Origin: Candidatus Zixiibacteriota bacterium
GTDB lineage: Bacteria > Zixibacteria > MSB-5A5 > GN15 > FEB-12
Assembly: GCA_036826635.1 (NCBI GenBank)
Contig: DAISVY010000008.1
Location: 64,292-128,291, forward strand
DNA: 64,000 nucleotides
Direction: 5' to 3'
Shown piece by piece: positions 12,275 through 33,463 of the stretch. Both the position numbers and the translations under genes were made by a program. Positions within the stretch are counted from its first letter, which is position 1. Each line of letters starts with the position of its first letter. The notes beneath the pieces were generated by a model. It had not been told where the DNA came from. It searched no databases and saw only the letters and a list, made by a program, of their open reading frames with translations.

Positions 12275-12275
12275 C

Positions 12276-13835: not shown

Positions 13836-13895
13836 ACAACGTCCTATTTACCTACCGGCCCGGCCATCCATAGCCGAACGCATCGAAAAACCACG

Positions 13896-14539: not shown

Positions 14540-14558
14540 CTTCTACTCCTGCACTTTC

Positions 14559-15053: not shown

Positions 15054-15065
15054 GGTCTATACTTC

Positions 15066-15479: not shown

Positions 15480-15516
15480 ATTCCACGTCGAGTTACAACT
15501 TTTCACCGGCGTGGAA

Positions 15517-15532
15517 AGCAAGAGAAATGCCA
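15517..15532 (-). promoter_or_regulatory. sigma-54 (-24/-12) promoter candidate for the flgB operon
   Basis: Minus strand reads TGGCAT-TTCTC-TTGCT; GG and GC are at consensus spacing (TGGCAC-N5-TTGCW). It lies 38 nt upstream of the flgB ATG at 15479. Confidence 0.6.
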
Positions 15533-15652
15533 AACCGCGTCCGCTTCACACACTCTATTGTCACACATGCAGTTAGAGCGTGCAAGCCAGGTCGACACTC
15601 GGGCTGTCAGGAACACACAGAAGGAACGGATTTCCGGTCCGTGGGGAATAAT

Positions 15653-16396
15653 TTACCGGTCTTTATCGGAATAATATAATTGTGAAGTGGGTTCGGTCAG
15701 GGTTAGCTCCATAGTCAGAATTACAACGTCCACCCGACGGTTGCGGGACCGGCCTTCGACCGTGCTGTTCGGCTGGATGGGGCGAAATTCCCCGTAACCA
15801 AGGGCCGAAATCCGATCCGGTGGAATGGGGTGATTCTCGATCAGGTATCTTGCCACGGTTGTTGCCCGCGCCGATGAAAGCTCCCAGTTGGACGGATAAA
15901 CAGAAGTGTGAATAGGCCGATTATCGGTATGCCCCTCCACTCTGACATGATTGGGGCGCCCTTTAACCTGTTCCGCGATCAAATCAAGGACATCGCGCGC
16001 CTTGAGCTTAAGCTCGGCCGAACCTTCATCGAAAAGGGCCGACTCTAAAATGTGAATAACCAGTCCCCGCTCGGTCACCTCGGACTGCAATTCCTCGTTC
16101 TTTCCAAGTTGCTTGAACCTGTCGTCGATACGCTGCTGAACCATACGCAGGTTTCCGAATTTGAGCAGGCCATGACCGGTTTTAGCCGGCATCAAACGGT
16201 ATTTCAACGCCGAATTGCCACCTCGCAAAACGGTGTTAAGAGCATCGGAGACCAGACCGAATTTCTTGGCATCCACCTGGGACATCGAATACATGACAAT
16301 GAAAAAAGCCAGCAGCAGAGTGATCAGATCGGCGTAGGTAAGCAACCAGCGCTCGAGATTTTCCGAAGAATCGAGTTTTTTGCGTTGACGGCGCAC
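15653..16396 (-). CDS. motB: flagellar stator protein MotB
   Basis: WLLTYADLITLLLAFFIVM TM segment with the conserved Asp, plus an OmpA-like C-terminus (NRRVDVVIL). Confidence 0.88.
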   Translation of the reverse strand: MRRQRKKLDSSENLERWLLTYADLITLLLAFFIVMYSMSQVDAKKFGLVSDALNTVLRGGNSALKYRLMPAKTGHGLLKFGNLRMVQQRIDDRFKQLGKNEELQSEVTERGLVIHILESALFDEGSAELKLKARDVLDLIAEQVKGRPNHVRVEGHTDNRPIHTSVYPSNWELSSARATTVARYLIENHPIPPDRISALGYGEFRPIQPNSTVEGRSRNRRVDVVILTMELTLTEPTSQLYYSDKDR

Positions 16397-16399
16397 GGC

Positions 16400-17164
16400 C
16401 TAAACCTCTACAGGGCGCTCCGAAGGGGCTATGAATGACATGAGACGGGTCCGAATGTTACGCGGGTTATCTCCCGACTGAATCGCCACCACTCCTTCCA
16501 TGATGAGTTCCAGATAGGCCATCTCTTCGTCGTTTTTCATCCGCAGCTTGTCGGACACGGGCAGGAAAAACAGATTGGCCAAACCGACACCCCAAAGAGT
16601 AGCGATAAATGCCGCAGCGATAGCCCCGGCCATCTGGCCGGCATCGGAAGTGCTCCCTAAAGCGTGAATCATCCCGAGCACGGTGCCCAATATGCCCAGG
16701 GTCGGTGCGAAACCACCGGCCTTCTGGAAAAACGCAATACCGCGTTTGTGACGTTCCTGCACGTAGGCAATCTCCGTTTCAAGAACTTCACGCAAAACAG
16801 TAACCTCGGTTCCGTCGATCAGAAGCTGGACAGCCTTTTTGAAAAAGGACTGCTTAATTTCTCTCTGATCGGCTTCCAGCCCCAGGATACCCTCACGCCG
16901 GGCCTTCTCGGCCAGCCTCACGATGTGGTTTATGACCTCGGCACAACTATGCGATGGCCCGGCAAAAGCCATCTGCAAATACTGAGGTACCCGCATAACG
17001 GTCTGAGCCGAGGTGGTAATCATGGTCGCTCCCAGAGTACCGCCTATTACAATCAGCATAGGAGCCAACAGGAAAACCGACTGCGGGTCGCCGCCTTCCA
17101 GCGCGTAAGCACCACAGATCGCACCGACGGACAGCACGAGGCCTAATATAGTAGCAAGATCCAT
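16400..17164 (-). CDS. motA: flagellar stator protein MotA
   Basis: 254 aa, MotA/TolQ/ExbB-type four-TM protein, directly upstream of motB. Confidence 0.88.
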   Translation of the reverse strand: MDLATILGLVLSVGAICGAYALEGGDPQSVFLLAPMLIVIGGTLGATMITTSAQTVMRVPQYLQMAFAGPSHSCAEVINHIVRLAEKARREGILGLEADQREIKQSFFKKAVQLLIDGTEVTVLREVLETEIAYVQERHKRGIAFFQKAGGFAPTLGILGTVLGMIHALGSTSDAGQMAGAIAAAFIATLWGVGLANLFFLPVSDKLRMKNDEEMAYLELIMEGVVAIQSGDNPRNIRTRLMSFIAPSERPVEV

Positions 17165-17234
17165 TTAATCTGCGCCGTCTTAGCTGTATTTACACATCAA
17201 CTTCGGGCGGTATAATAACCGCCCCATGAATGCA

Positions 17235-17263
17235 GTATCGGCAGGAAAGTTCAATATATGAAC
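17235..17263 (-). promoter_or_regulatory. sigma-28-type promoter candidate for motAB
   Basis: Minus strand reads GTTCA-N16-GCCGATAC; GCCGATA is the FliA/SigD -10 hallmark. It lies 70 nt upstream of the motA ATG. Confidence 0.5.
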
Positions 17264-17289
17264 AAAAAGTGTGATGCCGGATGCGGCAT
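17264..17289 (-). terminator. weak terminator-like hairpin after the sigma-54 regulator gene
   Basis: Minus strand reads ATGCCG-CATC-CGGCAT, then CACAC, then TTTTT. The stem is short and the T-run displaced. Confidence 0.3.
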
Positions 17290-17315
17290 TTCACAAACAG
17301 AAGGCCGGAAAAGAC

Positions 17316-18686
17316 TTAATTCGTTTCCTGGGTCTGATATTCGGCGAGTTTATTACGAATAGTTCTGGCTGAGACCCCCAGGGCCTCGGCGGCTTTGGTC
17401 TTATTGCCGTTGAATTTCTCCAGAGTCTTGAGAATAAGGTACTTATTGCCGTCTTCCAGCTTCATTGGCACATGCAAACCGCCTTCCGGCGCGGCCGTTT
17501 CACCGATGGCCAACTCAACCGGAAAATCGTTTTCGGTCAGCCTGTCTTCCCTGGTAGTGACAACCGCCCGTTCGATCATATTCTCCAGTTCCCGCACGTT
17601 GCCCGGCCAGTGGTACTTCATCAGCATACGGAGAGCCTGCTGGCTGATACCAGTGATGTCTTTGCTGTTTTCACCGTTGTATTTCCGGATAAAGTGATCC
17701 ACCAACAGCGGGATATCTTCGCGCCGTTCTCTCAAGGCCGGCAAATGAATAGGAATGACATTGAGGCGATAGAAAAGGTCCTCACGGAACCGACCGGCCA
17801 GGATGTACTCTTTGAGATTGCGGTTGGAAGTTGCAATAACCCGAACATCAACCGATATCGTCTGGGATGACCCGACTCTTTCGAACTCACGTTCCTGAAT
17901 AACACGCAGGAGTTTCGACTGCAAATTCAGCGGCATCTCAGATATTTCATCAAGCAAAAGCGTACCTTCATGAGCCAGCTCGAAACGGCCCCGATGTGTT
18001 CTCTTGGCATCGGTAAAGGCACCCTTCTCATAACCGAACAGTTCGGCCTCCACCAACGTTTCAGGAAGAGCCGCGCAGTTGAGCTTGATAAAAGGACCTT
18101 CCCGCCGATTCGAACAATAATGAATGGCCCGGGCCACCATTTCTTTGCCGGAGCCCGAATCGCCCGTTATCATCACCGTAGAACGAGCCGCCGCCACCGA
18201 CTGGATGAGATCGAAAATCCCCTTCATGATGCTCGTTTTGCCTATCATGTTCTGGAATTTGTGTGCCAGGTCATTGCGCATGATCTCATTCTGGGTACGG
18301 AGATCGATCATTTCGGTAATACGGGAAAGAACGTGTTCGACCGTTTCCGGGGTGACCGGTTTCAGCAGAAAATCGTGAGCCCCCTTCTTGATAGCGCTGA
18401 CCGCTTTTTCCACCGTACCGTATGCGGTCATGATAACGACTATCGTTTCCGGGCTAATCCGCTTAATATGTTCCAACAGGGTCAGACCGTCCATTTCATG
18501 CATTTTCAGATCGGTCAGGACAATATCAAAACTCCTGGCTTTGATTTTCTCCAGGGCTTCTTCACCGGAATATACAGCGGCCGCATCGAAACCGGCTCGG
18601 GTCACCGTTTCGAGCACGTAGTCATTCACATACCTGTCATCATCCACCACCAGAACCGAGTAGTTCATCGTCAGATCTCCATCCAT
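17316..18686 (-). CDS. sigma-54-dependent response regulator (REC-AAA+-Fis HTH; FlrC/FleR-like by context)
   Basis: REC (VLVVDDD...TDLKMHEMDG), AAA+ Walker A GDSGSGKE, GAFTDA loop, C-terminal HTH GNKTKAAEALGVSARTIRNKL. The start may be the ATG at 18668. Confidence 0.88.
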   Translation of the reverse strand: MDGDLTMNYSVLVVDDDRYVNDYVLETVTRAGFDAAAVYSGEEALEKIKARSFDIVLTDLKMHEMDGLTLLEHIKRISPETIVVIMTAYGTVEKAVSAIKKGAHDFLLKPVTPETVEHVLSRITEMIDLRTQNEIMRNDLAHKFQNMIGKTSIMKGIFDLIQSVAAARSTVMITGDSGSGKEMVARAIHYCSNRREGPFIKLNCAALPETLVEAELFGYEKGAFTDAKRTHRGRFELAHEGTLLLDEISEMPLNLQSKLLRVIQEREFERVGSSQTISVDVRVIATSNRNLKEYILAGRFREDLFYRLNVIPIHLPALRERREDIPLLVDHFIRKYNGENSKDITGISQQALRMLMKYHWPGNVRELENMIERAVVTTREDRLTENDFPVELAIGETAAPEGGLHVPMKLEDGNKYLILKTLEKFNGNKTKAAEALGVSARTIRNKLAEYQTQETN

Positions 18687-18696
18687 GCTCCGGTCA

Positions 18697-20031
18697 TTAA
18701 CTCGTCTCTATCGATGATCGCATATTCGTCGGCAAAGCGAGGGTGAACCGGGCACCATCGGACCGGTTCTCCGCGGCAATATCGCCACCGTGCGCTTTCA
18801 TAATTTTCCATCCCACGGCCAGCCCCAGACCGTTCCCCCCTTCCTTGGTAGTGAAAAAGGGAGCGAACAGCTTTTCCAGCACGTCATCAGGAATACCCGG
18901 CCCGGTATCGGTGATCACGATCTGAAAAGCCGTCTCGTGCAGTCCCAGGAGAAGCCGGTCGCCGTATTGCTCGGCCGCCACCTGACGAGGCAGTTTTCGA
19001 TATTCTATCGTCACCCGGCCGCGCCCCCGGCAAGCCTCGCACGAGTTGGTCATAACGTTGAACAGCACCTCTCTAAAAAGCACGGGATCAATGAACACCT
19101 CAATATCCTCACGCTGGGGAGGTGTCTCCCGAAGAATCAGTTCCATATTGCGGACCAGGTCGGCATTTTCTCTTTGGAACTGCGCCAGCACATCGGGCAG
19201 ATACCGGTCGATTCGTATCTGTTCCCGATTCACTTCTTCATTGCGGGTATAGTTCAACAGGGTAGTCACGGTGCTGTTAAGCGTCTCTACCCCATCGGTG
19301 ATTTTATTGATAAGTTTCTGTCGGGGGTCATCGGGGTCAAGATCGCGCTTAAGCAAAGAACCATAGCCGAGGATTCCCGAAAGCGGATTGCGCACCTGAT
19401 GGGCAACCGTAGCGGCCATCTCACCCAGAGCCGCAAGCGTGTTCAGCCGCGCGATTTCCTGCTCCATTTTCTTGGTTCCGGTCAGATCGTGGAAAACTTC
19501 GACCGCCCCGTTGGCTCGCCCCTGTTTGTCGCGAAGAATGGCCGTGGAAACCGACACAACCATGCGAGTACCATCGGCAAGCTCCAGCCGTTTTTCGACC
19601 GAAGCCGCTTCCCGACCGGTCTCGGCAGACCGCAAGGCGTTGGCATCTACGGGGTTGCCCGGGGGGATAACGTCCCGATAAGGCTTCCCCAACGGTTCAC
19701 TCTGGGGTATACCGAGCATTATTGATGCGGCCGGGTTGAAATGGGTGATCTGTCCGTCCTGATTCACGGCGACCACCCCGGCCGATATGGAGTTAAGAAT
19801 ACTATTGAGGAACTCGGTCGCTTCCAAATTGCGCGTGGTCATTTCCATGAGTTGTCGATTGGTCTCAGCCAACCGGTCGTTTTGGGCCGAGAATTCCTCT
19901 TTCAACTCGATATACTTGCGCTGAAGGGTATTAATTATCCGATTGAAGGAAGCGTACGAGTCGGCGAACTGGGAAAGATCGTCTATCGACTCAACGCCGC
20001 AATTACCTGCCATATCCCGCTTGTCAACCAT
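18697..20031 (-). CDS. cytoplasmic PAS-domain sensor histidine kinase (FlrB/FleS-like by context)
   Basis: No TM segment; PAS (ISAGVVAVNQDGQITHFNPAA), H-box AATVAHQVRNPLSGI, HATPase N/G boxes (DTGPGIP, GNGLGLA). Confidence 0.85.
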   Translation of the reverse strand: MVDKRDMAGNCGVESIDDLSQFADSYASFNRIINTLQRKYIELKEEFSAQNDRLAETNRQLMEMTTRNLEATEFLNSILNSISAGVVAVNQDGQITHFNPAASIMLGIPQSEPLGKPYRDVIPPGNPVDANALRSAETGREAASVEKRLELADGTRMVVSVSTAILRDKQGRANGAVEVFHDLTGTKKMEQEIARLNTLAALGEMAATVAHQVRNPLSGILGYGSLLKRDLDPDDPRQKLINKITDGVETLNSTVTTLLNYTRNEEVNREQIRIDRYLPDVLAQFQRENADLVRNMELILRETPPQREDIEVFIDPVLFREVLFNVMTNSCEACRGRGRVTIEYRKLPRQVAAEQYGDRLLLGLHETAFQIVITDTGPGIPDDVLEKLFAPFFTTKEGGNGLGLAVGWKIMKAHGGDIAAENRSDGARFTLALPTNMRSSIETS

Positions 20032-20098
20032 TGCTATATCCCATCCTCCGAGAACAGGATATTAGAAGCAACGCTTGTTCAGTTCAACTAAAACTTGA

Positions 20099-21199
20099 CT
20101 AAAAATAGCTGGTAATCTCAGCGGCGATGTTGTCAATGGGAGCAATGTGATCGGTAATATCAGCCTCGATAACGGCCTTCGGCATACCGTAAACAATACT
20201 GGTTCCTTCATCCTGGGCAATCAGAATACCGCCGCGGCTCTTAAGTAACCTGCCCCCCACGAGCCCATTGGAACCCATACCGGTCAGAATGACCGCCATG
20301 GCTCTGTTGCCGAAAGCTTCCGCTACCGAGTTGATCATCACGTCAATGCAGGGTTTATACAGAGTATCCGCGGGCTCGTCGGTAACCTGAGCGCGAGTCC
20401 GGCCACCGTAGCGCCGAACTTTAAGGTGCTTGCCGCCCGGAGCTATCAACACCAGGCCCGGTTCGACCGGGTCACCGTTTTCCGCTTCTCTGACCGTAAC
20501 CTGCGACAGGCTGTTCAACCGTTCGGCCAGCGATTTGGTGAAAGTCGCCGGCATATGCTGCGCGATAACGATACCGACCGGAAAGTTTTTTGGCAAAGCG
20601 GAAACGACGGTCTGAAGAGCCTGCGGTCCTCCGGTGGATGCCCCTATCGCCACGATGCTGATCCCGTGATGTCTCCGGGGCGGAGATGAGATCTCGACCG
20701 GATGGGTATGAGCAGGTTTGGGAGCAGGAGGCGCCGGGGCGGTAGAAACATGCCGCACATGGTATCGGGCCATCAGGATATGTTTACGCCGAACAACATC
20801 TTTGATCTTGGCCAGCAAACCGTCTTTGATCTTGACGATGTCAAGACTGACGTATGACATCTGCTTGGGGATAAAATCGACCGCCCCCAGTTCCAGCGCC
20901 TGAAGCGTGGCGTTGGCCCCCTCCGTGGTGACCGACGAGATCATCATGACGAGAGTGGGCATGGCCGACATGATCTGGCGCAATGCCGTCAGACCGTCCA
21001 TGCGCGGCATCTCGATATCCATAGTAACCAGGTCGGGCTTGAGCTGCCTGACCTTGGCCACGCCTTCTTCGCCGTCGCGTGCCGTACCGACCACTTTTAT
21101 AGCCGGGTCCGATTCCAGCATCATGGTCAGAGCCTTGCGCATGAATGCGGAGTCGTCGACCACCAGAACTCTTATTGGCGGTGATGTTGTATCGACCAC
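20099..21199 (-). CDS. cheB: chemotaxis methylesterase/deamidase CheB
   Basis: N-terminal REC (RVLVVDDSAFMR...MDIEMPRMDG) plus a CheB esterase domain (GASTGGPQAL, GMGSNG). Confidence 0.92.
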   Translation of the reverse strand: MVDTTSPPIRVLVVDDSAFMRKALTMMLESDPAIKVVGTARDGEEGVAKVRQLKPDLVTMDIEMPRMDGLTALRQIMSAMPTLVMMISSVTTEGANATLQALELGAVDFIPKQMSYVSLDIVKIKDGLLAKIKDVVRRKHILMARYHVRHVSTAPAPPAPKPAHTHPVEISSPPRRHHGISIVAIGASTGGPQALQTVVSALPKNFPVGIVIAQHMPATFTKSLAERLNSLSQVTVREAENGDPVEPGLVLIAPGGKHLKVRRYGGRTRAQVTDEPADTLYKPCIDVMINSVAEAFGNRAMAVILTGMGSNGLVGGRLLKSRGGILIAQDEGTSIVYGMPKAVIEADITDHIAPIDNIAAEITSYF

Positions 21200-21212: not shown

Positions 21213-22946
21213 TTAACTCAGTTTTTTAGCGATACCGAACAATCCCATCAAATCGACGATCAACCGTATGCGACCGTCACCGAGTATCGCAGCGCCGGCC
21301 ACTCCTTCCGTAGCACCCAAATACCCACCGAGCGATTTGATCACAACCTCTTCCTGCCCCAGGAAACGGTCGGTGATTATACCCAGTTTGCGGTCGGCCA
21401 ACCCAACAATCACAATGTAAGGTTTCTCGGTCAGAACAAAACCCCGAGTCGAGGAACGGAGAATTTCCCCCAAGTTGACAACCGGAACCACCTCATCTCG
21501 CAGGCGCAACACGGGACGTTGATTTACATATGATATGTTGGCACCGGCGGTCCTGACCGTCTCAGAAACCGACGACAACGGCAGAATAAAAACCTCGTCA
21601 TCGGACTGAATAAGTAAACCCCGAATGATAGCCAGCGTAAGCGGCAGTTTTATCGAAATAGTGGTGCCGACATCTTTGGTCGACGCTATCTCGACCAGGC
21701 CGTTAAGTTTTTCTATATTCGTACGGACCACGTCCATACCGACACCACGTCCGGAAACATCGGTAACAACTTTCGCCGTCGAGAAACCCGGCTCGAAAAT
21801 GAATCCGAAAATATCGCGATCAGGCAAGCGCTCGACGTCGGCCCGTGAAACCAGCCCTCTCTCCACCGCTTTCTCTTTGATGGCCTCCACGTTGAGACCT
21901 TTACCGTCATCCTCGATCTTGATCACGATATGCGAACCTTCCTGACTGGCGGAAAGCCTGACGACCCCCTCGGCCGGTTTCCCTTTGGCCACCCGGTCGG
22001 CGGGAGATTCAATACCGTGGTCGCAGGAATTTCTAACAAGATGAACCAGCGGATCGCCTATCTCATCGATGACGGATTTGTCCAGTTCGGTTGTTTCACC
22101 CGAGATTTTCAGTTCAATGTTTTTTCCGTTCTCACGAGTCAAATCACGAACCAGCCGCGGGAACTTACCGAACACCTTTCCCACCGGCTGCATGCGCATT
22201 TTCATAACAGCCAATTGCAACTCGGTGGAGATATAGTTAACGGAAGCGCCTTCGCGACCGAGTCGCTCCTTGATCGCCGCTATGCTGTCGTTGTCCTCGA
22301 AAGAGTTGATCGTCTGAAGCAAGCTATTGCGAGAAAGTACCAGCTCCCCGACCAGATTCATCAAAGCATCGAGACGATTGACATCAACACGTATGGTCTG
22401 CTCGGACATTTTCCTGTCGCCCACACTCCGGACCGAATCGGCTTTCACCGGATCGGGAGCAACAACCGAGGTCTCATCTTCCCCGACAGCCGCCGACACC
22501 TCTTCCATCAGCGACGACAGGGATTCGACCGGGTCCGGCTGCTCGCCACAGACACTGGCCAAGCGGCCGATTATATCATCGAGAGCGACCTCTTCCTGAT
22601 TGCCTTTCCGAACGTTATCAAGAAGGACCTTAAGAACGTCCACCGATTCAAGCAGCAAATCCATAATATCCGGAGTCACCGCTATTTCTGATCGGCGCAG
22701 CTTATTAAGGACATCCTCCATGCTGTGGGTGAGATTGGTAACCTGTTCAAAGCCCAGAAAACAGGAAGTACCTTTAATAGTATGAGCGGCACGAAAAATT
22801 TCGTTCAGAAGATCAAGGTCTCCGGGGGAAGCTTCCAGCCTGACCAGATTCTGGTCCAGTGAAGCGATCAGTTCATCCGCTTCCACCAGGAAATCATCAA
22901 CGATCTCCTGCATCTCGTCCAATTCAAAGTCAGTGTCATTACTCAT
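21213..22946 (-). CDS. cheA: chemotaxis histidine kinase CheA (P1-P3-P4-P5; no obvious P2)
   Basis: HPt AHTIKGTS, dimerisation IRVDVNRLDALMNLVGELVL, HATPase (DDGKGL, GRGVGMDVV), C-terminal CheW-like domain. Only about 50 acidic residues lie between P1 and P3. Confidence 0.92.
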   Translation of the reverse strand: MSNDTDFELDEMQEIVDDFLVEADELIASLDQNLVRLEASPGDLDLLNEIFRAAHTIKGTSCFLGFEQVTNLTHSMEDVLNKLRRSEIAVTPDIMDLLLESVDVLKVLLDNVRKGNQEEVALDDIIGRLASVCGEQPDPVESLSSLMEEVSAAVGEDETSVVAPDPVKADSVRSVGDRKMSEQTIRVDVNRLDALMNLVGELVLSRNSLLQTINSFEDNDSIAAIKERLGREGASVNYISTELQLAVMKMRMQPVGKVFGKFPRLVRDLTRENGKNIELKISGETTELDKSVIDEIGDPLVHLVRNSCDHGIESPADRVAKGKPAEGVVRLSASQEGSHIVIKIEDDGKGLNVEAIKEKAVERGLVSRADVERLPDRDIFGFIFEPGFSTAKVVTDVSGRGVGMDVVRTNIEKLNGLVEIASTKDVGTTISIKLPLTLAIIRGLLIQSDDEVFILPLSSVSETVRTAGANISYVNQRPVLRLRDEVVPVVNLGEILRSSTRGFVLTEKPYIVIVGLADRKLGIITDRFLGQEEVVIKSLGGYLGATEGVAGAAILGDGRIRLIVDLMGLFGIAKKLS

Positions 22947-22958
22947 AATACGAAAACG

Positions 22959-23579
22959 TTACTTGTCCTTGACTTCGTTGAAAATCGTGTCGATATCCTC
23001 CTGTTTCGTCTTCTGGTTAAACAAGTCGGCATGAGGATCGTAGGCACGTTTCTTCCTGTTACCATCGCCCGGCTCGGCCACACATTCCTGATCGTCGCCG
23101 GTCCGAGAAAGAATGTTCTGTAGTTTACCTTCGATATCTTCCAGAATAGACGCGGCATGGTCCATCTGCTGAGCCGTAATATCCTGAAACTGGAGCGCAT
23201 CCATAATCAGATAGACATCGTTGAGATTGGCGTTGGCTCTTTCCGCGACAGCCTCGGCCGTTGCATTGACGGCTTCGACATCTCCGGCCAGGACTTTTTC
23301 CTTGAGTTGCGCCATATCGTTTACGATTTCTTCCTCTCGTTGCATAACATGCTCTACTTTATCGAGCATCTGCTGAGTGGCCGCCTCGGTCTGCTGGCTG
23401 ATCTTGTCGAGTTGATCGGTCGCTTGTGGCACCTGGGCACGGGATTCCACCAGCGGTCGTTTCAGGCTTCTCAAATTATCCACCAATTTGGATATGGCTT
23501 CGCTAAGACCGCTTATTTCGTGCTGTATTTTCATCTGTACGTTCTCCGTGACCGACATATTTCCCTGTCTCCCGTTCAT
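22959..23579 (-). CDS. cheZ: CheZ-like CheY-P phosphatase
   Basis: Long helical hairpin with the catalytic signature ALQFQDITAQQ (CheZ D/Q motif) and an acidic C-terminal peptide QEDIDTIFNE resembling the CheY-binding tail. It sits between cheY and cheA. Confidence 0.7.
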   Translation of the reverse strand: MNGRQGNMSVTENVQMKIQHEISGLSEAISKLVDNLRSLKRPLVESRAQVPQATDQLDKISQQTEAATQQMLDKVEHVMQREEEIVNDMAQLKEKVLAGDVEAVNATAEAVAERANANLNDVYLIMDALQFQDITAQQMDHAASILEDIEGKLQNILSRTGDDQECVAEPGDGNRKKRAYDPHADLFNQKTKQEDIDTIFNEVKDK

Positions 23580-23585
23580 GGTCTG

Positions 23586-23960
23586 CTAACCCGCCAACAC
23601 CTGATCGATTTTATCTCTTAGTGTATCGGGAGTAAACGGCTTGACGATATAATTGTTAACACCCGCCTTCATGGCCTCCATGATGTCATCCTTGACGGAG
23701 CGAGTCGTCACCATCAGAATCGGCAACGACTTATATTCGTCCATAGATCGCAGCGTAGTCACAAATGTCAGCCCGTCCATTTCCGGCATATTCCAGTCGG
23801 TAATGACGAAATCAGGTTGCTCGATTTTGATCTTGACCAGCGCGTCTTTACCGTCGCTGGCTTCGATAACATCGGTATAACCGGCCCGTTTCAAAGTATT
23901 GATAATAATCCGACGCATGGTTGGACTATCGTCAACCGCAAGGATCTTGATATTACCCAC
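23586..23960 (-). CDS. cheY: chemotaxis response regulator CheY
   Basis: 124 aa; ILAVDDSPTMRR, ITDWNMPEMDG, NNYIVKPFT. Confidence 0.9.
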   Translation of the reverse strand: MGNIKILAVDDSPTMRRIIINTLKRAGYTDVIEASDGKDALVKIKIEQPDFVITDWNMPEMDGLTFVTTLRSMDEYKSLPILMVTTRSVKDDIMEAMKAGVNNYIVKPFTPDTLRDKIDQVLAG

Positions 23961-23972
23961 AACGTCTCCTCG

Positions 23973-24380
23973 TTACCCCATGTTGCAGTTCAACAGCTTC
24001 GCCACCTCTGAGAGCAAAAGAGACGAATTGAAGGGCTTAACCAAATAAGAATCAGCCCCGGCAGCCATTCCCCTCTCGCGATCATCCTCGTCTCCTTCCG
24101 AGGACAGAATAATGATTGGTGTCTCTCGATGTACCTGGTTTTGCCTGACTGTTTCAATCAACCCGTAACCGTCAAGATTCGGCATATTCAAATCAGTAAT
24201 AATGAGCATCACTTCATCGGGTAGACTGGACATCTTCTCCAGAGCATCCATCCCATCGCAGGCTGTCATCACTTCGTATCCCCCACTCTTGAGAGAGTAC
24301 GAAACGAATTTGACCACGGTCGGAGAGTCGTCGACAACAAGAATCGTCTGGCTCATAAACTGTTCCCTATCTTCTGACAA
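23973..24380 (-). CDS. single-domain response regulator (second CheY-like)
   Basis: 135 aa; ILVVDDSPTV, ITDLNMPNLDG, DSYLVKPF. Confidence 0.85.
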   Translation of the reverse strand: MSEDREQFMSQTILVVDDSPTVVKFVSYSLKSGGYEVMTACDGMDALEKMSSLPDEVMLIITDLNMPNLDGYGLIETVRQNQVHRETPIIILSSEGDEDDRERGMAAGADSYLVKPFNSSLLLSEVAKLLNCNMG

Positions 24381-24390: not shown

Positions 24391-25386
24391 TCACTTCTTA
24401 ACAGCCCCCCGCTTTATTTTACTGAGCAGGTCCAGAGCGCGAGTAGCTCCTTCGCCCGGGGCCACTCCGGTGGGCACGGCGGAGGCCTGTACCGTCTGAG
24501 ACTTCGCTCGCGACGAGGATTCGGCGGTCACATTCTCTTTTTGATAAACCAGGGCGTTTTTGAAATAGACGAGCTTGAACGCCTTGGAGATCCCGTGCAG
24601 CGTCTCGGAATGACCGATATATAAATAGCCACCCGGATTGAGAGCGTTGAAGAAACCTCGCACCAGTTGCTTCTTGACTTCGTCGGAGAAGTAAATCATG
24701 ACATTGCGACAGAAGATAACGTCCATGCCGCTGACCATCGAGACCTTCCGCGGTTCATTGAGGTTCATATGCGAGAACTTGACCATCGCTCTCACTTCGG
24801 GTTTAACCCGATACATGTCGCCCTGTTTTACGAAATATCTCTCCAACAACCTCGGGGGTACATTTCGCAGCGTGAGCCCAGAGTATTCACCGTACCGAGC
24901 TCTTTGCAACACATACTCGGAAATATCATTGGCTATTATTTCAACATTCCACCCGGCCATGCTTATCAGTTTTTCAAGAATCATAACGCCGAGTGTATAT
25001 GGTTCCTCCCCGGTAGAGCACCCGGCCGACCAAATCTTTATATTTTTGGGTGCGTGTTCCCGTTTTTTGCGTTCCAGTAACTGCGGCAGGACTTCGTCGG
25101 AGAAACACTTGAGCTGCGGCTCGTTTCTGAAGAAGCTCGTCTCATTGGTGGTCATGAGCACCATGAGCTGGTTGAACTCTTTCAGCGATACGTCATACTT
25201 GACACGGTAGAAGTAATCGCGCACCGATTTTATATTCAACTCGCCCATGCGCTTCTGCAGCCTGTTCTTGACCAGATACATCTTGTTCTCTGCGAAGAAG
25301 ATGCCGCTTTTTTCATGGATGAAGTCGCGGATCATGCGAAATTCATCCAGTGATATTTCGAGCTCAGACTCAAAACCGGAAATCAT
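24391..25386 (-). CDS. cheR: chemotaxis methyltransferase CheR with a C-terminal extension of about 50 aa
   Basis: TNETSFFRNEPQL, IWSAGCSTGEEPYTL and VIFCRNVMIYF motifs, followed by a low-complexity tail. Confidence 0.9.
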   Translation of the reverse strand: MISGFESELEISLDEFRMIRDFIHEKSGIFFAENKMYLVKNRLQKRMGELNIKSVRDYFYRVKYDVSLKEFNQLMVLMTTNETSFFRNEPQLKCFSDEVLPQLLERKKREHAPKNIKIWSAGCSTGEEPYTLGVMILEKLISMAGWNVEIIANDISEYVLQRARYGEYSGLTLRNVPPRLLERYFVKQGDMYRVKPEVRAMVKFSHMNLNEPRKVSMVSGMDVIFCRNVMIYFSDEVKKQLVRGFFNALNPGGYLYIGHSETLHGISKAFKLVYFKNALVYQKENVTAESSSRAKSQTVQASAVPTGVAPGEGATRALDLLSKIKRGAVKK

Positions 25387-25428: not shown

Positions 25429-25803
25429 TTATTGCTCCCTGTCTTTCAACTTCGATTCCAGCAACTTGTAAAGTCGGTTGATGTTGAACGGCTTAATAAT
25501 GTAGTCCTCAACCTTGTTTCTCAAACCATTCACGGCCGTCTCGACCGACGGATATCCCGTCATGAGAACAACCGGCATATTCGGATTGGTCTCCTTTACC
25601 CGACTGGTAAGAGCCAGACCATCCATTTCCGGCATTTTGATATCAGTCAGAAGCAAGTCGATCTTCCTGGCGCGGAGAATTTCCAGCGCCTTTTCTCCGT
25701 TCTCCGCAACCGAGATATCCCATCCCTGGCCGGTGAAGAAATCATAGAGCAAATCGCGTATGAGCAACTCGTCGTCAACAACCAGTATAGACGGCCTATT
25801 CAT
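25429..25803 (-). CDS. stand-alone receiver-domain response regulator
   Basis: 124 aa; ILVVDDELLIRD, LTDIKMPEMDG, DYIIKPF. Its start overlaps the stop of the HEAT-repeat gene by 1 nt. Confidence 0.85.
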   Translation of the reverse strand: MNRPSILVVDDELLIRDLLYDFFTGQGWDISVAENGEKALEILRARKIDLLLTDIKMPEMDGLALTSRVKETNPNMPVVLMTGYPSVETAVNGLRNKVEDYIIKPFNINRLYKLLESKLKDREQ

Positions 25804-27716
25804 CAGGAATCCCCCTCGATTTTCCTCAGAGCCATTCTGGCGGCATCGGCCAAGTCCTGGTTGCGGCTGTCTGTCAGCCTGCTGAGCTGAGAGATTGCCT
25901 GGTTACTGCCGATTTGAGACAGCGCCTTGGCGGCTGCTATCTTGATGATATCCATCTCGTCCTCAAGGTACGGGATGATATATTCGGCATACCCCGGTTC
26001 GGCCAGTTCGGCAATAGATACAATCGTATGATATTTCACCCACACGTCTTCATCGTCCAGCAGGAACCGAATATCGGGAACGGCTTTCTTGCCCTTGAGC
26101 GTAATGAGAGCACTGACAGCAGCCTTGCGAACGGCGCTGTCCTCGTCGTTGAGAGCCGTTATTATCGATTCCGTGCTGTCCACCTGACCGATTCTGGCCA
26201 GGGAAGCCACGGCCGATTTGCGTACTCCCGAATCGGGATGATTGACCGCTTTAATCAGCGGCTCCACCACGTCCTGCTCGCCGATCCAGCCAAGAGCGGT
26301 CACGGCCAGCCGTTGTCTCTCGGCATCATCGTGGTAAAGGTCCGACGTAAACTTGGCGACCACTTTGGGACCACCTATAATAATCATGGCCCCGACCGCC
26401 GCCTCGCGGACGTCGGCATATTTGTCGTCGAGACCCGTGGCGACAAAGTCGACTTCATCGTCGGTACACAACCAGCCCAGCGCCGAGAAAGCAGCCGCAC
26501 GAACGTGCCCGTTGGCATCCTCGGCCAGTCGCTTGAGATCTTCCACGGCCGGCGTATATCCCGAAATACCCAGTATATGTGCAACCTTCTGACGAATTTC
26601 GGGATCATCATCGTGAACGTACGGCAATATGTCGGGGGCGACTTTGTCATCGACCAACAATTTCATCACGTCCAGCAGCTTGAGCTTGAGACCTTTGGAA
26701 GCCTGAGGAATCTTCTTTATGATCGCTCCGGCCGCACCGTAGCCGACTTCGCCGAGTATCTCGGTGATACTTTGCAAACGATCGTCATCGACATAATCTA
26801 TAACCTCAAGCAAACCGTTGATAACTTCGCTGCCGTACCAATGCTTCAAATGCGAAAGAGTGAACTCCGTAATAGCCTCGTTGCGATTCTTGATGCCATC
26901 GAAGAGAAACCCGGTGTACCTCTCGAGGGGAATGTCCACGCCAACGCTACCACCGTGCTTTCGGCTTATATCGATGATGGCCGTCATGGCAACTTCACCA
27001 GCCGTACGTTCGGACCCGTCGAGGAATTCGGCCAGATGTGAAATCGACTCCTTTTGGCCGATCTTGCCTATTGCCTCAATAACGATATAGGTCGTAATCG
27101 GATCTTCATTACCCAGGTAACGATAGAGATGTCCCAGAGCCGCAGGATCACCGATCTTACCCAGCGCTTCTATGGCCGGCAGCCGGGCATCTTCGATCCT
27201 TTCGGCAACAGCGATCAGGTCTCCCACAGCGCGGTGCGAGCCTATCTCCCCCAGCGCCTCGGCAGCCGAGCAAACGACGTTGGCATTTTCATCCCAGAGC
27301 CGTTGAAGCAAAGGTTCCACGGCCTCCCCATCACGGATAAGACCGAGAACATCGCATATGAACTTGCGCACGTCGTGATCGTCGTTGTCCAGATTCTCGA
27401 TAAGAGAAGACACCGCCCCGGAACCAATCCTCACCAGAATCTCCGAGGCCAGGTTACGCGTACCGATGTCATCATTGGCAAGGAAACGAATCAATAGCTG
27501 AGCCGCCGTGGCTCCCTTGATACGCGCCAGGTGATCCGCGGCAAGCTCTCGAATGCCCAGATCGGGATCTTCCATAGCGATGACCAGCCCGGCAACCGCT
27601 TCATCCTCGGAATACGTCCCGAGTTCTTTGACGGCTTCCTCACGTTCGAAAAAATCAGGCGACTGCAGCTTGGCCAGCAAGTCCCCGATTTGCTCTTCCA
27701 CTGTGTTCATAACCAT
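25803..27716 (-). CDS. HEAT-repeat (PBS-lyase-type) protein, 637 aa
   Basis: Many tandem repeats of about 31 aa with the pattern D.D..VR..A..ALG.IG (e.g. DPDLGIRELAADHLARI, DHDVRKFICDVLGLI, DSGVRKSAVASLARIG, DSAVRKAAVSALITL). No TM segment or signal peptide. Confidence 0.8.
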   Translation of the reverse strand: MVMNTVEEQIGDLLAKLQSPDFFEREEAVKELGTYSEDEAVAGLVIAMEDPDLGIRELAADHLARIKGATAAQLLIRFLANDDIGTRNLASEILVRIGSGAVSSLIENLDNDDHDVRKFICDVLGLIRDGEAVEPLLQRLWDENANVVCSAAEALGEIGSHRAVGDLIAVAERIEDARLPAIEALGKIGDPAALGHLYRYLGNEDPITTYIVIEAIGKIGQKESISHLAEFLDGSERTAGEVAMTAIIDISRKHGGSVGVDIPLERYTGFLFDGIKNRNEAITEFTLSHLKHWYGSEVINGLLEVIDYVDDDRLQSITEILGEVGYGAAGAIIKKIPQASKGLKLKLLDVMKLLVDDKVAPDILPYVHDDDPEIRQKVAHILGISGYTPAVEDLKRLAEDANGHVRAAAFSALGWLCTDDEVDFVATGLDDKYADVREAAVGAMIIIGGPKVVAKFTSDLYHDDAERQRLAVTALGWIGEQDVVEPLIKAVNHPDSGVRKSAVASLARIGQVDSTESIITALNDEDSAVRKAAVSALITLKGKKAVPDIRFLLDDEDVWVKYHTIVSIAELAEPGYAEYIIPYLEDEMDIIKIAAAKALSQIGSNQAISQLSRLTDSRNQDLADAARMALRKIEGDS

Positions 27717-27743
27717 TCACCCATCCTTTGCAGCTCATTGATC

Positions 27744-28094
27744 CTAATTGGCCGGCACGGATTGGAATGACTGCACTGCCTCTTCCTCGGTAGAGTAAAT
27801 CTCGAAGATGTGAGACAGTTGGGTAATCTCGAAAATCTCCTGGACATAACTGGCCAGATTGGAAAGCGTCAGGCGACCTTTAAGCAGCCGAATTTCTTTC
27901 ATGATCGACACCAACGCTCCCAGACCGGAACTGTTGATAAACTCAACCTCTGACAGATTGAGATGTATCAAGGTTATATTCTTGTCGAACTGTTCCTTGA
28001 GATGCTGCTTGAGCGTGGCCCCGCTGACCAGATCAAGACGACCGCTCAACGAAAGAACGGCAACATTCCCCTCTTCCCTCATTGTAACGTCCAT
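27744..28094 (-). CDS. STAS-domain anti-sigma-factor antagonist (RsbV/SpoIIAA-like)
   Basis: 116 aa; LSGRLDLVSG...NLSEVEFINSSGLGALV includes the phosphorylatable Ser context. Confidence 0.85.
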   Translation of the reverse strand: MDVTMREEGNVAVLSLSGRLDLVSGATLKQHLKEQFDKNITLIHLNLSEVEFINSSGLGALVSIMKEIRLLKGRLTLSNLASYVQEIFEITQLSHIFEIYSTEEEAVQSFQSVPAN

Positions 28095-28112
28095 AATCTC
28101 CTCCGAAGAATG

Positions 28113-28538
28113 TTATCTTTCGAATATCTCCGTTTTCTTTTCTTTCTCAAACGACAGGGAAACCCGCAGCCCTCCATCTGCACATTCCGAGAACTCGGTT
28201 GATACCGCGAGCAAGCGCATGAGTCCGATCCCCCGACCTCTTTCGGCCGAAGGCCCCACCGGGCGATGAGCCCGGATTTGTGCCAACCCACCATTTCCCT
28301 GATCCGTTATATCGGCACGAATCTCGCATTCGTTTACTTCCAGTTCCAGGTGAATCAACTTTTCGGGATTGCAACCATTGCCATGGACCAGAGCATTGGT
28401 AAACGCCTCTGATATGGCTACCGTAACTTTCCACAGGAGCTTCTGCGGAACCCCATGCTGCTCCATGAGTTCAATTGCCTCATCCAACATGCGGTTGGGG
28501 GCATCAAGCGTTGACGAATAACTCCGGTGATATATCAC
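28113..28538 (-). CDS. RsbW/SpoIIAB-like serine kinase anti-sigma factor
   Basis: 141 aa HATPase_c-type; AISEAFTNALVHG N-box and ERGRGIGLM G-box. Confidence 0.8.
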   Translation of the reverse strand: MIYHRSYSSTLDAPNRMLDEAIELMEQHGVPQKLLWKVTVAISEAFTNALVHGNGCNPEKLIHLELEVNECEIRADITDQGNGGLAQIRAHRPVGPSAERGRGIGLMRLLAVSTEFSECADGGLRVSLSFEKEKKTEIFER

Positions 28539-28543
28539 GGTTC

Positions 28544-29830
28544 TTAATCCACCCTGACCTGAACAATAGTGAAATCATCCTGGCTGTCTTCAGGAGCACC
28601 ATCGGTGAAACGATCCACCCAATCTTTAACCCTCAAACAGAAGTCCTCGGGATTCATACCAATTTCCGCGGAAAAGACCTGCTCGGCCCGTTCCCGCCCG
28701 AAAAGATTACCCTCTATATCGCGAGCCTCGGTCAAACCGTCGGTAAACAGAAACAACCGATCCCGGCTGGAAAAAGCGCGCTCCCCGAGACTATATGAAG
28801 TGCCCTCGAACTGGCCCAGAATAGGCCCGCCCTCGGACAGTTCCTCAATACGACCTTCACGATTATCCCAAAAAAGGCCCGGCATATGGCCCGCGTTGCA
28901 ATAAGTAAGTTTACGAGTGGCCAAATCGAACTTGCAGAAGAACAGGGTAACAAACATCTCTCTTTTCTTGATTATCTTAGCCGCCATCAGGTCGTTAACC
29001 CGTTCAGCCAGCGCGGACATACTGATAGTGGGATTGCTCGTCAGGATCGACTTGATAACAGCCGAACAGGCCGACATGATCAGCGCGGCCGGTACGCCTT
29101 TGTTGGAGACATCCCCGATAATGACGATAAAACGACGTTCATCGATTTTGAGAATATCATAGAAATCGCCACCCACTTCGCGAGCCGGGAAATACACCGC
29201 TCCGATACTGGCGCCGAAGATATCCCCCACATCACCCGGCAGAATCGTTTCCTGAATCTGCTTGGCGATGGCCATTTCCTGGCCGACTTTCTGCTGCTTT
29301 AGCTTGTCTTTAATAAGGGTAGAGTTTTCTACCGCGACCGCGACAAAGCTCAGAAGCATCTCAAGGATATCCCTATCCTCATCCGTGTAGTTACCCCCGC
29401 CAGCCTTATTGATAACGATCATTACGCCGAGACATCTCTGCCGGGCATGGATCGGGGCAGCGATAACCGTATCCAGAACGATACCTTCGGATTTCAGATC
29501 CAGATCAGACAGGAGGATCATCTGATCGCGCTTGAAGCAATAGCTGGCCAGATCCAGACCATCCTCATACATCAGCGAGCGGACAAAAGAATCGGAAACT
29601 CCCCAGGCTACCCTGGGCTTGAGTTCCCCGTCTTCTTCGATAAGTATAACCCCCACTTCGCCATCGACCAGCCGAAGGGCCATGTCCATCGTAACGGACA
29701 AAACGGCATCAATTTCAAGGAATGCCGTAATAACCGCCCCCATGGTGGCGAGGTCGCGGACCTGGGCTCGCTGAGCCGCGAGTTTGGCCTCGAGCTTCTC
29801 GACCGTAGTTGTCTGTTCCACCGACGCCAT
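28544..29830 (-). CDS. GAF-domain PP2C (SpoIIE/RsbU-type) serine phosphatase
   Basis: 428 aa; N-terminal GAF-like region and C-terminal FYDI...IGDVSNKGVPAALIMS...LFTDGLTEA, the PP2C SpoIIE signature. Confidence 0.85.
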   Translation of the reverse strand: MASVEQTTTVEKLEAKLAAQRAQVRDLATMGAVITAFLEIDAVLSVTMDMALRLVDGEVGVILIEEDGELKPRVAWGVSDSFVRSLMYEDGLDLASYCFKRDQMILLSDLDLKSEGIVLDTVIAAPIHARQRCLGVMIVINKAGGGNYTDEDRDILEMLLSFVAVAVENSTLIKDKLKQQKVGQEMAIAKQIQETILPGDVGDIFGASIGAVYFPAREVGGDFYDILKIDERRFIVIIGDVSNKGVPAALIMSACSAVIKSILTSNPTISMSALAERVNDLMAAKIIKKREMFVTLFFCKFDLATRKLTYCNAGHMPGLFWDNREGRIEELSEGGPILGQFEGTSYSLGERAFSSRDRLFLFTDGLTEARDIEGNLFGRERAEQVFSAEIGMNPEDFCLRVKDWVDRFTDGAPEDSQDDFTIVQVRVD

Positions 29831-29838
29831 CGGTCAAT

Positions 29839-29876
29839 ATATCGGCAGATCGACTTTACAATTGACGAATTAGCCG
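29839..29876 (-). promoter_or_regulatory. sigma-28-type -10 element immediately upstream of the GAF-PP2C gene
   Basis: Minus strand reads GTCAA-N15-GCCGATAT, then 8 nt, then the ATG at 29830. The -35 match is weak, and the transcript would be leaderless. Confidence 0.3.
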
Positions 29877-29938
29877 GATTTGGAACCCGGTTCGGGAAGA
29901 TAAGCGCCAGAATATCAGACTTTTACGAGAGATATCAG

Positions 29939-29954
29939 AGCAGTTCCAGGGCCA
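29939..29954 (-). promoter_or_regulatory. possible sigma-54 promoter upstream of the GAF-PP2C gene
   Basis: Minus strand reads TGGCCC-TGGAA-CTGCT; GG/GC spacing is correct. It lies about 109 nt upstream of the ATG at 29830. Confidence 0.35.
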
Positions 29955-30001: not shown

Positions 30002-30496
30002 TTAATCAGAAACGTCGACATGCACGTTGATCGGTTCTCCGTCCGATTCTAATCGTATTTTGCCATCAGTAGTAGCTATTTTTACCTCTATTTTGTCCGG
30101 CCCTGCTGCTCCCATGTCTTCTTTCTCAAGTATGACCGGGAGTGTTTCGGGCTTGATACCATTCCAGCCGCCTGTTACCGCATCGACCACAACTCCAACC
30201 AAACCCGTAAAGAAAACATCCAGAAAGACATACCCAAACTTTGCGGATGCTTGCAGATGCTTATTGCATGTCTTGTAACCTTCCTTGCTGAAGGTCAGAT
30301 CGTAGCTGTATTTTCTGGACACCTGGATACTTGCCGGGGTCGTATACTCTCCAATCCCCGGTGATGCCTCTATCTGAGCCCCCGATGGAGAACTCTCAAT
30401 TTCTACAATCTGTGTGGAACCTTGAAACATAGTCCCACAACCGACTGTCAACAGCAATAAACCAACCAAAACAAACAGGGACATGAAGCTTCTCAT
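30002..30496 (-). CDS. PEGA-domain lipoprotein
   Basis: MRSFMSLFVLVGLLLLTVGCG lipobox, then IESSPSGAQIE, a PEGA motif. Start taken at the ATG at 30496. Confidence 0.65.
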   Translation of the reverse strand: MRSFMSLFVLVGLLLLTVGCGTMFQGSTQIVEIESSPSGAQIEASPGIGEYTTPASIQVSRKYSYDLTFSKEGYKTCNKHLQASAKFGYVFLDVFFTGLVGVVVDAVTGGWNGIKPETLPVILEKEDMGAAGPDKIEVKIATTDGKIRLESDGEPINVHVDVSD

Positions 30497-30678
30497 ACAT
30501 CCTCCTCCCAAAAGATTTATTGTGATTACTGTACCCGAAAACTACCCCGAGCAGCGAGACTCGGTGAGTTGATTACACACCTCCACCCCTGAATACGTTC
30601 GGCTGTGCTCTCTATGATCGTTGTTCTATTACGTACCAGAAGATATCACTAACGAACCCGAAACAAACTCATGGTGGA

Positions 30679-33391: not shown

Positions 33392-33463
33392 AGCGGGCGA
33401 GGAGGATCGAACTCCCGACGTCAAGCTTGGGAAGCTTGCATTCTACCGCTGAATTACGCCCGC
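33392..33463 (-). tRNA. tRNA-Gly (anticodon CCC)
   Basis: Folded by hand from GCGGGCG-TA-ATTC-AGCGGTA-GAAT-G-CAAGC-TTCCCAA-GCTTG-ACGTC-GGGAG-TTCGATC-CTCCT-CGCCCGC-T. Full cloverleaf with a TTCGATC T-loop; no encoded CCA. Confidence 0.9.

Follow-up and report, generated by a model that had tools for sequence, protein, structure and literature searches.

The 64,000-nt stretch analyzed here (hereafter the window) covers positions 64,292-128,291 of contig DAISVY010000008.1 from a Candidatus Zixiibacteriota genome (GCA_036826635.1). Its subject of interest is a set of five minus-strand open reading frames (ORFs) that encode a GAF-PP2C phosphatase, an RsbW-like kinase, a STAS protein, a 637-aa HEAT-repeat protein and a stand-alone receiver (REC1), at the head of a chemotaxis (che) operon. 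All five ORFs lie exactly where a first-pass annotation of this DNA had placed them (Table 1), and the domains it had assigned were confirmed with Pfam in every case (SpoIIE/GAF, HATPase_c_2, STAS, HEAT_2 and Response_reg). The genes are separated by 5 nt (PP2C-kinase), 18 nt (kinase-STAS) and 27 nt (STAS-HEAT), and HEAT and REC1 overlap by 1 nt. As also proposed there, the set leads straight into cheR-REC-cheY-cheZ-cheA-cheB according to Pfam on the window ORFs; cheB is followed by genes for a PAS histidine kinase and a sigma54-dependent response regulator, then by motAB and the basal-body cluster from flgB to flgK. The upstream side is occupied by the housekeeping genes der, a radical-SAM gene, tatC, nrdR and glyA. 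The operon spans positions 29830 to 17316, with 13 genes from PP2C through the sigma54 regulator. These genes are predicted to form one sigma28-type transcription unit that is conserved across Zixibacteria, because a sigma28-type promoter precedes the PP2C gene and a hairpin at 17274-17289 ends the operon.

The first-pass annotation had asked whether this adjacency is kept in relatives. A scan with one genome per GTDB species gave 80 species-level Zixibacteria loci in which it is, and every locus long enough to judge has the same order, PP2C-kinase-STAS-HEAT-REC1-cheR-REC2-cheY-cheZ-cheA-cheB-histidine kinase-sigma54 response regulator, including loci with another upstream neighbor (peptidase M1 in L003 and L004). 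In the window itself, a gene for a PEGA-domain lipoprotein (30002-30511, -) stands between der and the operon promoter; since it has a counterpart in 0 of the 80 related loci, it appears to be a recent insertion that left the operon promoter intact. The HEAT protein keeps a length of 633-640 aa at 37-71% identity, and its named matches are nearly all from Zixibacteria/GN15. PP2C and kinase are separate genes in 71 of 75 species and are fused into a single GAF-PP2C-kinase ORF in the other four, which represent at least two lineages.

We also noticed some variation in gene content. An extra receiver gene of 169-218 aa, which does not occur in the window, lies between REC1 and cheR in about 25 loci of several Zixibacterial clades (for example, L002 12307-12816, L003 12317-12973 and L004 12312-12944). 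One metagenome-assembled genome (L045, 5400-6320) lacks cheR through most of cheB, of which a 57-aa C-terminal remnant stays, and retains the partner switch, HEAT, REC1 and the PAS kinase/sigma54 regulator pair. In another (L062, 14200-15100), cheA is truncated and both cheZ and cheB are missing.

The partner switch and the search for a sigma factor

Partner switches are textbook regulators of sigma factors. Their three hallmarks are all found here, namely a phosphatase with the PP2C aspartate motifs, a GHKL kinase with N, G1 and G2 boxes, and a single-domain STAS protein with a serine at the expected place. The phosphatase carries GGDFYD, GDVSNKG, TDG and DDFT, which are invariant in 63 orthologs, and its N-terminal part consists of a GAF domain (not a receiver domain) and a coiled-coil-like stretch. 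The kinase boxes (N, EAFTNALVHG; G1, DQGNG; G2, GRGIG) are conserved in orthologs, and in the PDB the kinase matches SpoIIAB weakly (1e-3). The STAS protein scores 79 bits against TIGR00377 (cut-off 53), its nearest PDB relatives are SpoIIAA, TM1442 and RsbV, and Ser55 within the invariant FINSSGLG is its predicted phospho-acceptor. By these motifs, the locus encodes an intact serine-phosphorylation partner switch, with GAF-PP2C and the RsbW-like kinase as its enzymes and a STAS protein that carries Ser55 as their substrate. Because PP2C and kinase are fused in some species, we infer that the two act as one enzyme unit.

The components of the switch differ in how they are conserved. Of all proteins of the operon, the kinase evolves fastest (mean distance 1.07, compared with 0.45 for STAS); only 25 of its 141 positions are conserved at 80% or more, all of them in the ATP-binding motifs, and the 40 residues at its N-terminus are variable. 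In the STAS protein, 63 of 116 positions reach the same level, from end to end, and include the almost invariant C-terminal YVQEIFEITQLSHIFEIY. This pattern fits an enzyme dedicated to a STAS protein with several partners, as in the HsbA and HmpV systems, rather than an anti-sigma factor gripping a conserved sigma factor. With the kinase conserved in its ATP motifs alone and STAS throughout, a sigma factor as the target of the switch, one of the two targets initially proposed, seems less likely than a design in which STAS is the output.

Neither a sigma-factor domain nor a FlgM domain was found by Pfam or NCBIfam in any scanned ORF of the window. With FliA and SigD sequences as probes, tblastn gave no match either in the window or in the 10 kb on each side of the module in 84 loci. 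The earlier remark that no sigma factor gene adjoins the kinase therefore extends to the scanned ORFs of the entire 64 kb, with no sigma factor detected in cis. It had likewise been noted that flgM does not adjoin flgN, and indeed the neighbors of flgN are flgJ and flgK; flgM is also not beside flgN in the relative L085, where the flagellar stretch past flgK was found to contain neither fliA nor flgM. This absence beside flgN carries little weight, as FlgM easily escapes detection. A 106-aa ORF between flgC and fliE (14219-14539, -) was considered as a hidden FlgM, since it starts with MKINP and so resembles Bacillus FlgM, and was rejected (BLASTP E = 1.8, no Pfam or NCBIfam family). Its 46 homologs of 101-115 aa carry few organism labels, mostly Zixibacteria, and it looks like a lineage-specific flagellar-cluster protein that is not detectably FlgM.

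One explanation would make the RsbW-like kinase itself an anti-sigma28 factor that replaces the absent FlgM, with sigma28 released by STAS after dephosphorylation by GAF-PP2C. This would suit a canonical three-part RsbU/V/W-type module, a flagellar cluster in which FlgM is undetectable, and an operon that is sigma28-dependent, as flgM is in enterics. We nevertheless regard it as quite improbable in view of the fast evolution of the kinase, the restriction of its conserved positions to the ATP motifs with a variable N-terminus, a sigma gene in cis in 0 of 84 loci, and the fusion of kinase to phosphatase in some species. In addition, a distant locus described below (L086) has STAS and HEAT genes and no recognizable kinase beside them.

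The HEAT protein as a candidate scaffold and target of the switch

The AlphaFold2 model of the HEAT protein is a continuous solenoid of 38 helices, or about 19 repeats (pLDDT 91.9). Sequence and fold searches of the PDB returned generic solenoids only (alphaRep designs, SF3B1, CAND1, karyopherins and the PP2A A-subunit). When representatives at 50% identity were searched exhaustively, end-to-end matches of the same length (613-672 aa) at 26-34% identity emerged beyond the Zixibacterial orthologs. They share the ordered motifs DVRKFA, NV..AAEALG, VGHVR, Y.DVRE and WVRY and, of the 166 positions that are conserved in Zixibacteria, keep 50-69%. On this alignment evidence, the distant homologs and the Zixibacterial protein appear to be one colinear family.

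Three of the distant homologs could be placed in genomic context. In L086, from a genome of 26% GC, the order is orf107-STAS-HEAT, with a gap of 4 nt between the STAS gene and the one downstream for a colinear HEAT homolog of 641 aa; this STAS protein is 44% identical to that of the window over its full length and shares its C-terminal motif, and nearby no che, PP2C or receiver genes were found. The other two lie in che clusters, with the orders MCP-CheW(x3)-CheR-CheD-CheD-CheR-CheB-HEAT-CheR-REC-CheA (L087) and CheW-MCP-CheB-HEAT-CheR-REC-CheA (L088). In both of them cheR is directly downstream of HEAT, the receiver after cheR is closest to the Zixibacterial REC2, and no partner switch is present on the recovered sequence (8-10 kb upstream and 4-5 kb downstream). 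Members of the family thus accompany che genes, STAS or the two together, which is the pattern expected of a bridge, and the earlier suggestion of HEAT as a physical link between Che and the partner switch becomes plausible on these grounds. The HEAT gene also holds the position that the sigma factor gene has in rsbV-rsbW-sigB-type operons. Two further leads were discarded: a metagenome search for more STAS-paired HEAT homologs, made with a two-sequence alignment, gave only L089, a giant generic HEAT protein with no STAS or che neighbors, and a second HEAT protein of the window (51574-53793), considered as a paralog of interest, has only repeat-level similarity (27%).

Our best model, which we favor tentatively and with somewhat less than even confidence, is that the switch acts through STAS on a che-associated HEAT scaffold and not on a sigma factor. 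GAF-PP2C and the kinase would set the phosphorylation state of STAS Ser55 after an intracellular cue sensed by the GAF domain. STAS would be the diffusible output, as HsbA and HmpV are, and its partner would be the HEAT scaffold encoded immediately downstream. The scaffold would in turn contact Che components, for which CheR, CheB, CheA and the CheY-like REC2 are candidates; REC2 is encoded two genes from HEAT and co-occurs with it in L087 and L088. In this way the switch would tune chemotaxis signaling or adaptation post-translationally, without a sigma factor, and REC1 would give the scaffold a His-Asp input, probably from the co-operonic PAS kinase rather than from CheA. That STAS directly targets the HEAT scaffold, and that this scaffold is an integral auxiliary part of a widespread class of che clusters, is a possibility about which we have more doubt.

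Several points weigh against the scaffold model. The adjacency can be explained by co-transcription alone, and the kinase might still bind a sigma factor through its fast-evolving surface. Outside Zixibacteria, the STAS-HEAT pairing is found at one locus (L086) and the che-embedded HEAT at two. The genes fliA and flgM were not located in ~74 kb around the flagellar cluster or within +/-10 kb of the module in relatives. Rate covariation among the operon proteins, an exploratory and insensitive measure over 19-22 shared species that gives only ~0.1 for CheA-CheY, is low for STAS-HEAT (0.19) and negative for REC1-HEAT (-0.16). In favor of the model, as a weak hint, it is 0.43 for HEAT with PP2C, 0.41 with the kinase and 0.34-0.39 with CheA.

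The first of these points can be carried further, to a situation in which there is no direct cross-talk, the switch, HEAT/REC1 and Che are merely co-expressed in motile cells, and the target of the switch is unlinked, for instance a distant stress sigma factor or a cyclic di-GMP enzyme. It is common for a partner switch to have a target that is distant or unknown (PMC8256260), and HsbA also binds the diguanylate cyclase HsbD (PMC6482189). We consider mere co-expression rather unlikely, as gene order and spacing are fixed phylum-wide even where the upstream context differs, the promoter was kept despite the insertion of the PEGA gene upstream, and distant lineages show HEAT paired with STAS and, independently, with che genes.

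Promoters, the receiver and the flagellar hierarchy

The sequence TCAA-N15-GCCGATAT in front of the PP2C gene conforms to the TAAA-N15-GCCGATAA type of sigma28 (FliA) promoter. Only 8 nt separate GCCGATAT from the PP2C ATG, so the mRNA is predicted to be nearly leaderless. The strict motif occurs twice in the window (0.12 expected), and T(C/A)AA-N15-G(C/T)CGATAG is found at the same place in four relatives with HEAT identities of 38-71%. In 1.28 Mb of related loci, both strands included, 25 of the 30 occurrences of the strict motif are upstream of PP2C. The 150 nt before PP2C contain a G[CT]CGATA box in 55 of 64 loci and those before motA in 34 of 35, compared with 0-14% for each of 14 other genes and a background of 5.5%. 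In the window, motA is preceded by the terminator hairpin and then by TCAT-N15-GCCGATAC, and the flagellin gene of L085 is preceded by a near match, TTAA-N15-GTCGATT. Since the box is conserved at PP2C and motA and is rare elsewhere, the operon is most simply read as a target of a sigma28-type factor, like motAB. The first-pass annotation had cited the GCCGATAT element as fitting a switch that could target a FliA-like sigma factor; the element stands as a conserved sigma28-type promoter and does not by itself show such control, because a promoter of this type is expected for any che operon and sigma28 is not thereby indicated as the target of the switch.

A close examination of REC1 bears on what may feed into the module. 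Its phosphorylation-site residues are present (DD10/11, D53, T82 and K104), and within the window it is closest to the receiver of the sigma54 regulator (42% identity, E = 5e-30), with 28% identity to CheY and 27-29% over CheY, REC2 and CheB. NCBIfam ranks AtoC, ZraR, NtrX and NtrC at the top for REC1, and CheY for the product of 23586-23960. In consensus sequences over 39-78 orthologs, CheY, REC2 and CheB have the helix-1 signature DDS-x-x-M/V-R/K, while helix 1 of REC1 is the invariant DDELLIRDLLYDFF and that of the sigma54 regulator is DD(D/E)xLv. REC1, which by position would be annotated as CheY-like, is accordingly an NtrC-type receiver and not a CheY-type one, and the annotation should be corrected. 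As it is without the helix-1 signature of the CheA substrates, phosphotransfer from CheA to REC1 is doubtful, and the proposal that the Che pathway signals through this receiver is weakened. In the exploratory covariation analysis described above, REC1 covaries most with the PAS kinase (0.52-0.62) and negatively with CheA, and we consider the PAS kinase (18697..20031) the more likely candidate for the REC1 phosphodonor. The 1-nt overlap of the HEAT stop and REC1 start is kept in relatives, and REC1 appears to be translationally coupled to the HEAT gene.

Promoter and receiver together bear on another possibility, which builds on the proposal of the first-pass annotation: a signal from the Che pathway or from a two-component system would travel via REC1 and HEAT into the switch, whose end target would be sigma28, either directly or via FlgM as for HsbA in Pseudomonas. 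As the operon itself is sigma28-dependent, this would make a feedback loop, and autoregulation is typical of anti-sigma modules. In P. aeruginosa, unphosphorylated HsbA binds FlgM and frees FliA (PMC6482189), and hsbAR-hptB lies within the Pseudomonas flagellar cluster (bioRxiv 10.1101/2021.08.29.457346); the lack of flgM beside flgN in the window and L085, as well as the coupling of HEAT and REC1, would also agree with such a route. We judge it unlikely, however, because REC1 is without the CheA-substrate signature, the sigma28 promoter is what any che operon would have, and neither a sigma factor nor FlgM turned up close to the module in 84 loci. Moreover, the STAS-HEAT pair of L086 has no flagellar or che context, and HEAT homologs occur in che clusters without any switch (L087 and L088).

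Other promoter-like elements were also found. Immediately before flgB stands TGGCAT-N5-TTGCT (15517-15532, -), a sigma54 promoter close to the consensus. Since the longest ORF called for flgB includes this site, the gene probably starts downstream of 15533. The site suggests a flagellar hierarchy in which sigma54 is followed by sigma28. For the partner-switch module, a sigma54 promoter was considered and dropped, since TGGCAC-N5-TTGCW is not enriched in the window and its sole good site is the one before flgB. A sigma70-like TTGAAC-N17-TAATAT (20058-20086, -) in the 67 nt that separate cheB from the PAS kinase gene may be an internal promoter that frees the PAS kinase/sigma54 regulator pair from sigma28. 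On the plus strand, TTAA-N16-GCCGATAT (46433-46440) lies ~10 nt before an ORF for a 190-aa secreted protein with a signal peptide (46450-47022), possibly an additional member of the sigma28 regulon because of the same near-leaderless geometry as at the PP2C gene. A strict TCAA-N15-GTCGATA (57849-57874, -) is intergenic, 120 nt upstream of the gene for a 936-aa Peptidase_MA_2/PD40 protein (54919-57729), and two GCCGATAT boxes on opposite strands, 17 nt apart (51520-51549), lie between the end of the 739-aa HEAT-repeat gene and hsp20.

The flagellar genes of L085 continue, at 11935-19753, with flgK, csrA, a 644-aa FlgL-like gene, fliW, a glycosyltransferase-TPR gene and a 731-aa flagellin, and fliD follows the flagellin gene; the flagellin leader is ~215 nt long, in the context of a FliW-CsrA-flagellin translational switch. 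A gene with a type IX secretion system (T9SS) C-terminal sorting domain and a FlgD-Ig-like domain lies on the opposite strand between fliJ and flgF (7395-8741, +) and keeps the same place in L085 (2932-4170, -), an odd conserved passenger of the flagellar cluster, the sorting domain of which fits the Fibrobacteres-Chlorobi-Bacteroidetes (FCB) superphylum. The che operon itself contains no cheW or MCP genes and encodes a CheZ-family phosphatase (22959-23579, -) beside three single-domain receivers in this non-proteobacterial FCB group. In all of the window, only a tRNA gene (33392-33463, -) reaches the Rfam gathering threshold.

Table 1. Coordinates of the genes and predicted regulatory elements of the operon in the window
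Feature	Position	Strand	Basis
GAF-PP2C (SpoIIE-type) serine phosphatase, 428 aa	28544..29830	-	Pfam SpoIIE 1e-42, GAF 1e-09
RsbW/SpoIIAB-like serine kinase, 141 aa	28113..28538	-	Pfam HATPase_c_2 1e-18
STAS-only protein, anti-sigma antagonist fold, 116 aa	27744..28094	-	Pfam STAS 9e-22
PBS-type HEAT-repeat solenoid, 637 aa	25803..27716	-	Pfam HEAT_2, 8 stretches, 4e-76; also HEAT_PBS matches
REC1, stand-alone NtrC-type receiver, 124 aa	25429..25803	-	Pfam Response_reg 9e-30
cheR, methyltransferase	24391..25386	-	Pfam CheR 1e-61
REC2, CheY-paralog receiver	23973..24380	-	38% identity to CheY; DDSpTvvK helix-1 signature
cheY	23586..23960	-	NCBIfam CheY 129 bits; 71-90% identity across phylum
cheZ	22959..23579	-	Pfam CheZ 6e-11
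cheA (Hpt, dimerization, HATPase and CheW-like domains)	21213..22946	-	Pfam
cheB	20099..21199	-	Pfam
Cytoplasmic PAS histidine kinase, FlrB/FleS-like by context	18697..20031	-	Pfam PAS, HisKA, HATPase_c
Sigma54-dependent response regulator, FlrC/FleR/FlgR-like by context	17316..18686	-	Pfam REC, Sigma54_activat, HTH_8; NCBIfam including FlbD, FlgR
Predicted sigma28-type promoter of the operon, TCAA (29865-29862)-N15-GCCGATAT (29846-29839)	29839..29865	-	Sequence reading, box conservation
Terminator-like hairpin at the end of the 13-gene operon	17274..17289	-	Sequence reading
Second predicted sigma28-type promoter, TCAT-N15-GCCGATAC, upstream of motAB	17236..17262	-	Sequence reading; box at motA in 34/35 loci

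Comparison with known systems

The two precedents that the first-pass annotation had named, CrsR/CrsA of Shewanella and Cpc7 of Myxococcus, are both found in the literature (PMC9855816, PMC11514114). The CrsR/CrsA partner switch is housed in the che1 locus of Shewanella oneidensis (PMC9855816, PMC6482189), and the present system resembles it in having PP2C, kinase and STAS inside a che cluster, with kinase and phosphatase acting on one STAS protein. CrsR, however, is a single REC-PP2C-kinase protein, whereas here the input domain is GAF and the kinase is mostly a separate gene. Of the features of the CrsR/HsbR subfamily, the location in a che/flagellar cluster is shared and the single REC-PP2C-kinase regulator is not. 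The CrsR kinase domain sequesters RpoS, while the kinase here has no conserved surface beyond its ATP motifs. The che1 locus with CrsR/CrsA belongs to another phylum and has no HEAT protein, and the che operon of the window is a flagellar one, predicted to be driven by sigma28.

The HptB-HsbR-HsbA system of Pseudomonas is similar in that the switch lies in a flagellar/che neighborhood and the STAS protein HsbA is a multi-partner output (PMC6482189); the hsb genes are downstream of cheR in P. aeruginosa and head a flagellar operon in P. putida (bioRxiv 10.1101/2021.08.29.457346). It differs in that HsbR unites REC, PP2C and kinase in one protein and receives its input from an Hpt protein, unlike the separate GAF-PP2C and kinase here, and in that the hsb promoter of P. 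putida is sigma70-like rather than sigma28-type. The known targets of HsbA/HsbR are FlgM, HsbD and RpoS, and neither a HEAT scaffold nor a stand-alone receiver belongs to that system. Closer in gene structure is HmpU/V/W of Nostoc punctiforme, with three separate PP2C, STAS and kinase genes tied to a Che-like motility system (PMC6495340, PMC8256260). HmpV and, by prediction, the STAS protein here serve as the output, and the HmpV effector is not a sigma factor and is still unknown. The Hmp system, on the other hand, is cyanobacterial, serves type IV pilus motility, has no described HEAT partner, and differs in operon structure and promoter.

On the side of the HEAT protein, Cpc7 of M. xanthus is a HEAT_PBS protein that serves as a Che adaptor or output and binds CheY7 (Darnell et al. 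2014, as cited in PMC11514114), and OE2401F of Halobacterium, also HEAT_PBS, binds CheD and CheF (PMC2666748). The likeness lies in the repeat type and the gene context, that is, a PBS-type HEAT protein in a che cluster, and a position of HEAT beside cheR is seen in Zixibacteria, L087 and L088. No partner switch is part of the Cpc7 or OE2401F systems, and the receiver next to HEAT in the window is of the NtrC type rather than the CheY type. More generally, STAS-only proteins in motility and chemotaxis operons have been noted in a review (PMC8256260), and HmpV, RbaV and BtrV are examples of STAS proteins as output with a non-sigma or unknown effector (PMC8256260, PMC6495340).

Compared with these systems, the combination of a partner switch and a HEAT_PBS adaptor in one operon is new, as are the GAF input of the phosphatase, where the known che-linked switches have a receiver, and the NtrC-type receiver beside HEAT together with sigma28-type control of the operon. 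New as well is an arrangement fixed across a whole phylum, with comparative evidence that points to a conserved STAS-HEAT pair. Our literature search found no paper on the regulation of chemotaxis in Zixibacteria, and the elements described here give a first regulatory outline of Zixibacterial motility, with a putative sigma54 promoter at flgB, sigma28-type promoters at motAB and the che operon, and csrA-fliW-flagellin downstream in a relative. If STAS does target the HEAT scaffold directly, and this scaffold is an integral part of a widespread class of che clusters, this would define a new output class of partner switches, a serine-phosphorylation gate on chemotaxis signaling instead of on a sigma factor, and a family of ~640-aa "Che-HEAT" proteins reaching well beyond Zixibacteria. 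For the growing set of STAS outputs with unknown effectors (HmpV, RbaV, BtrV and partly HsbA), the ~640-aa HEAT scaffold can be nominated as a candidate effector, since one lineage has it beside STAS, others have it within che clusters, and an entire candidate phylum joins the two. Under the same condition, it would offer a candidate answer to what HmpV, RbaV and BtrV bind.

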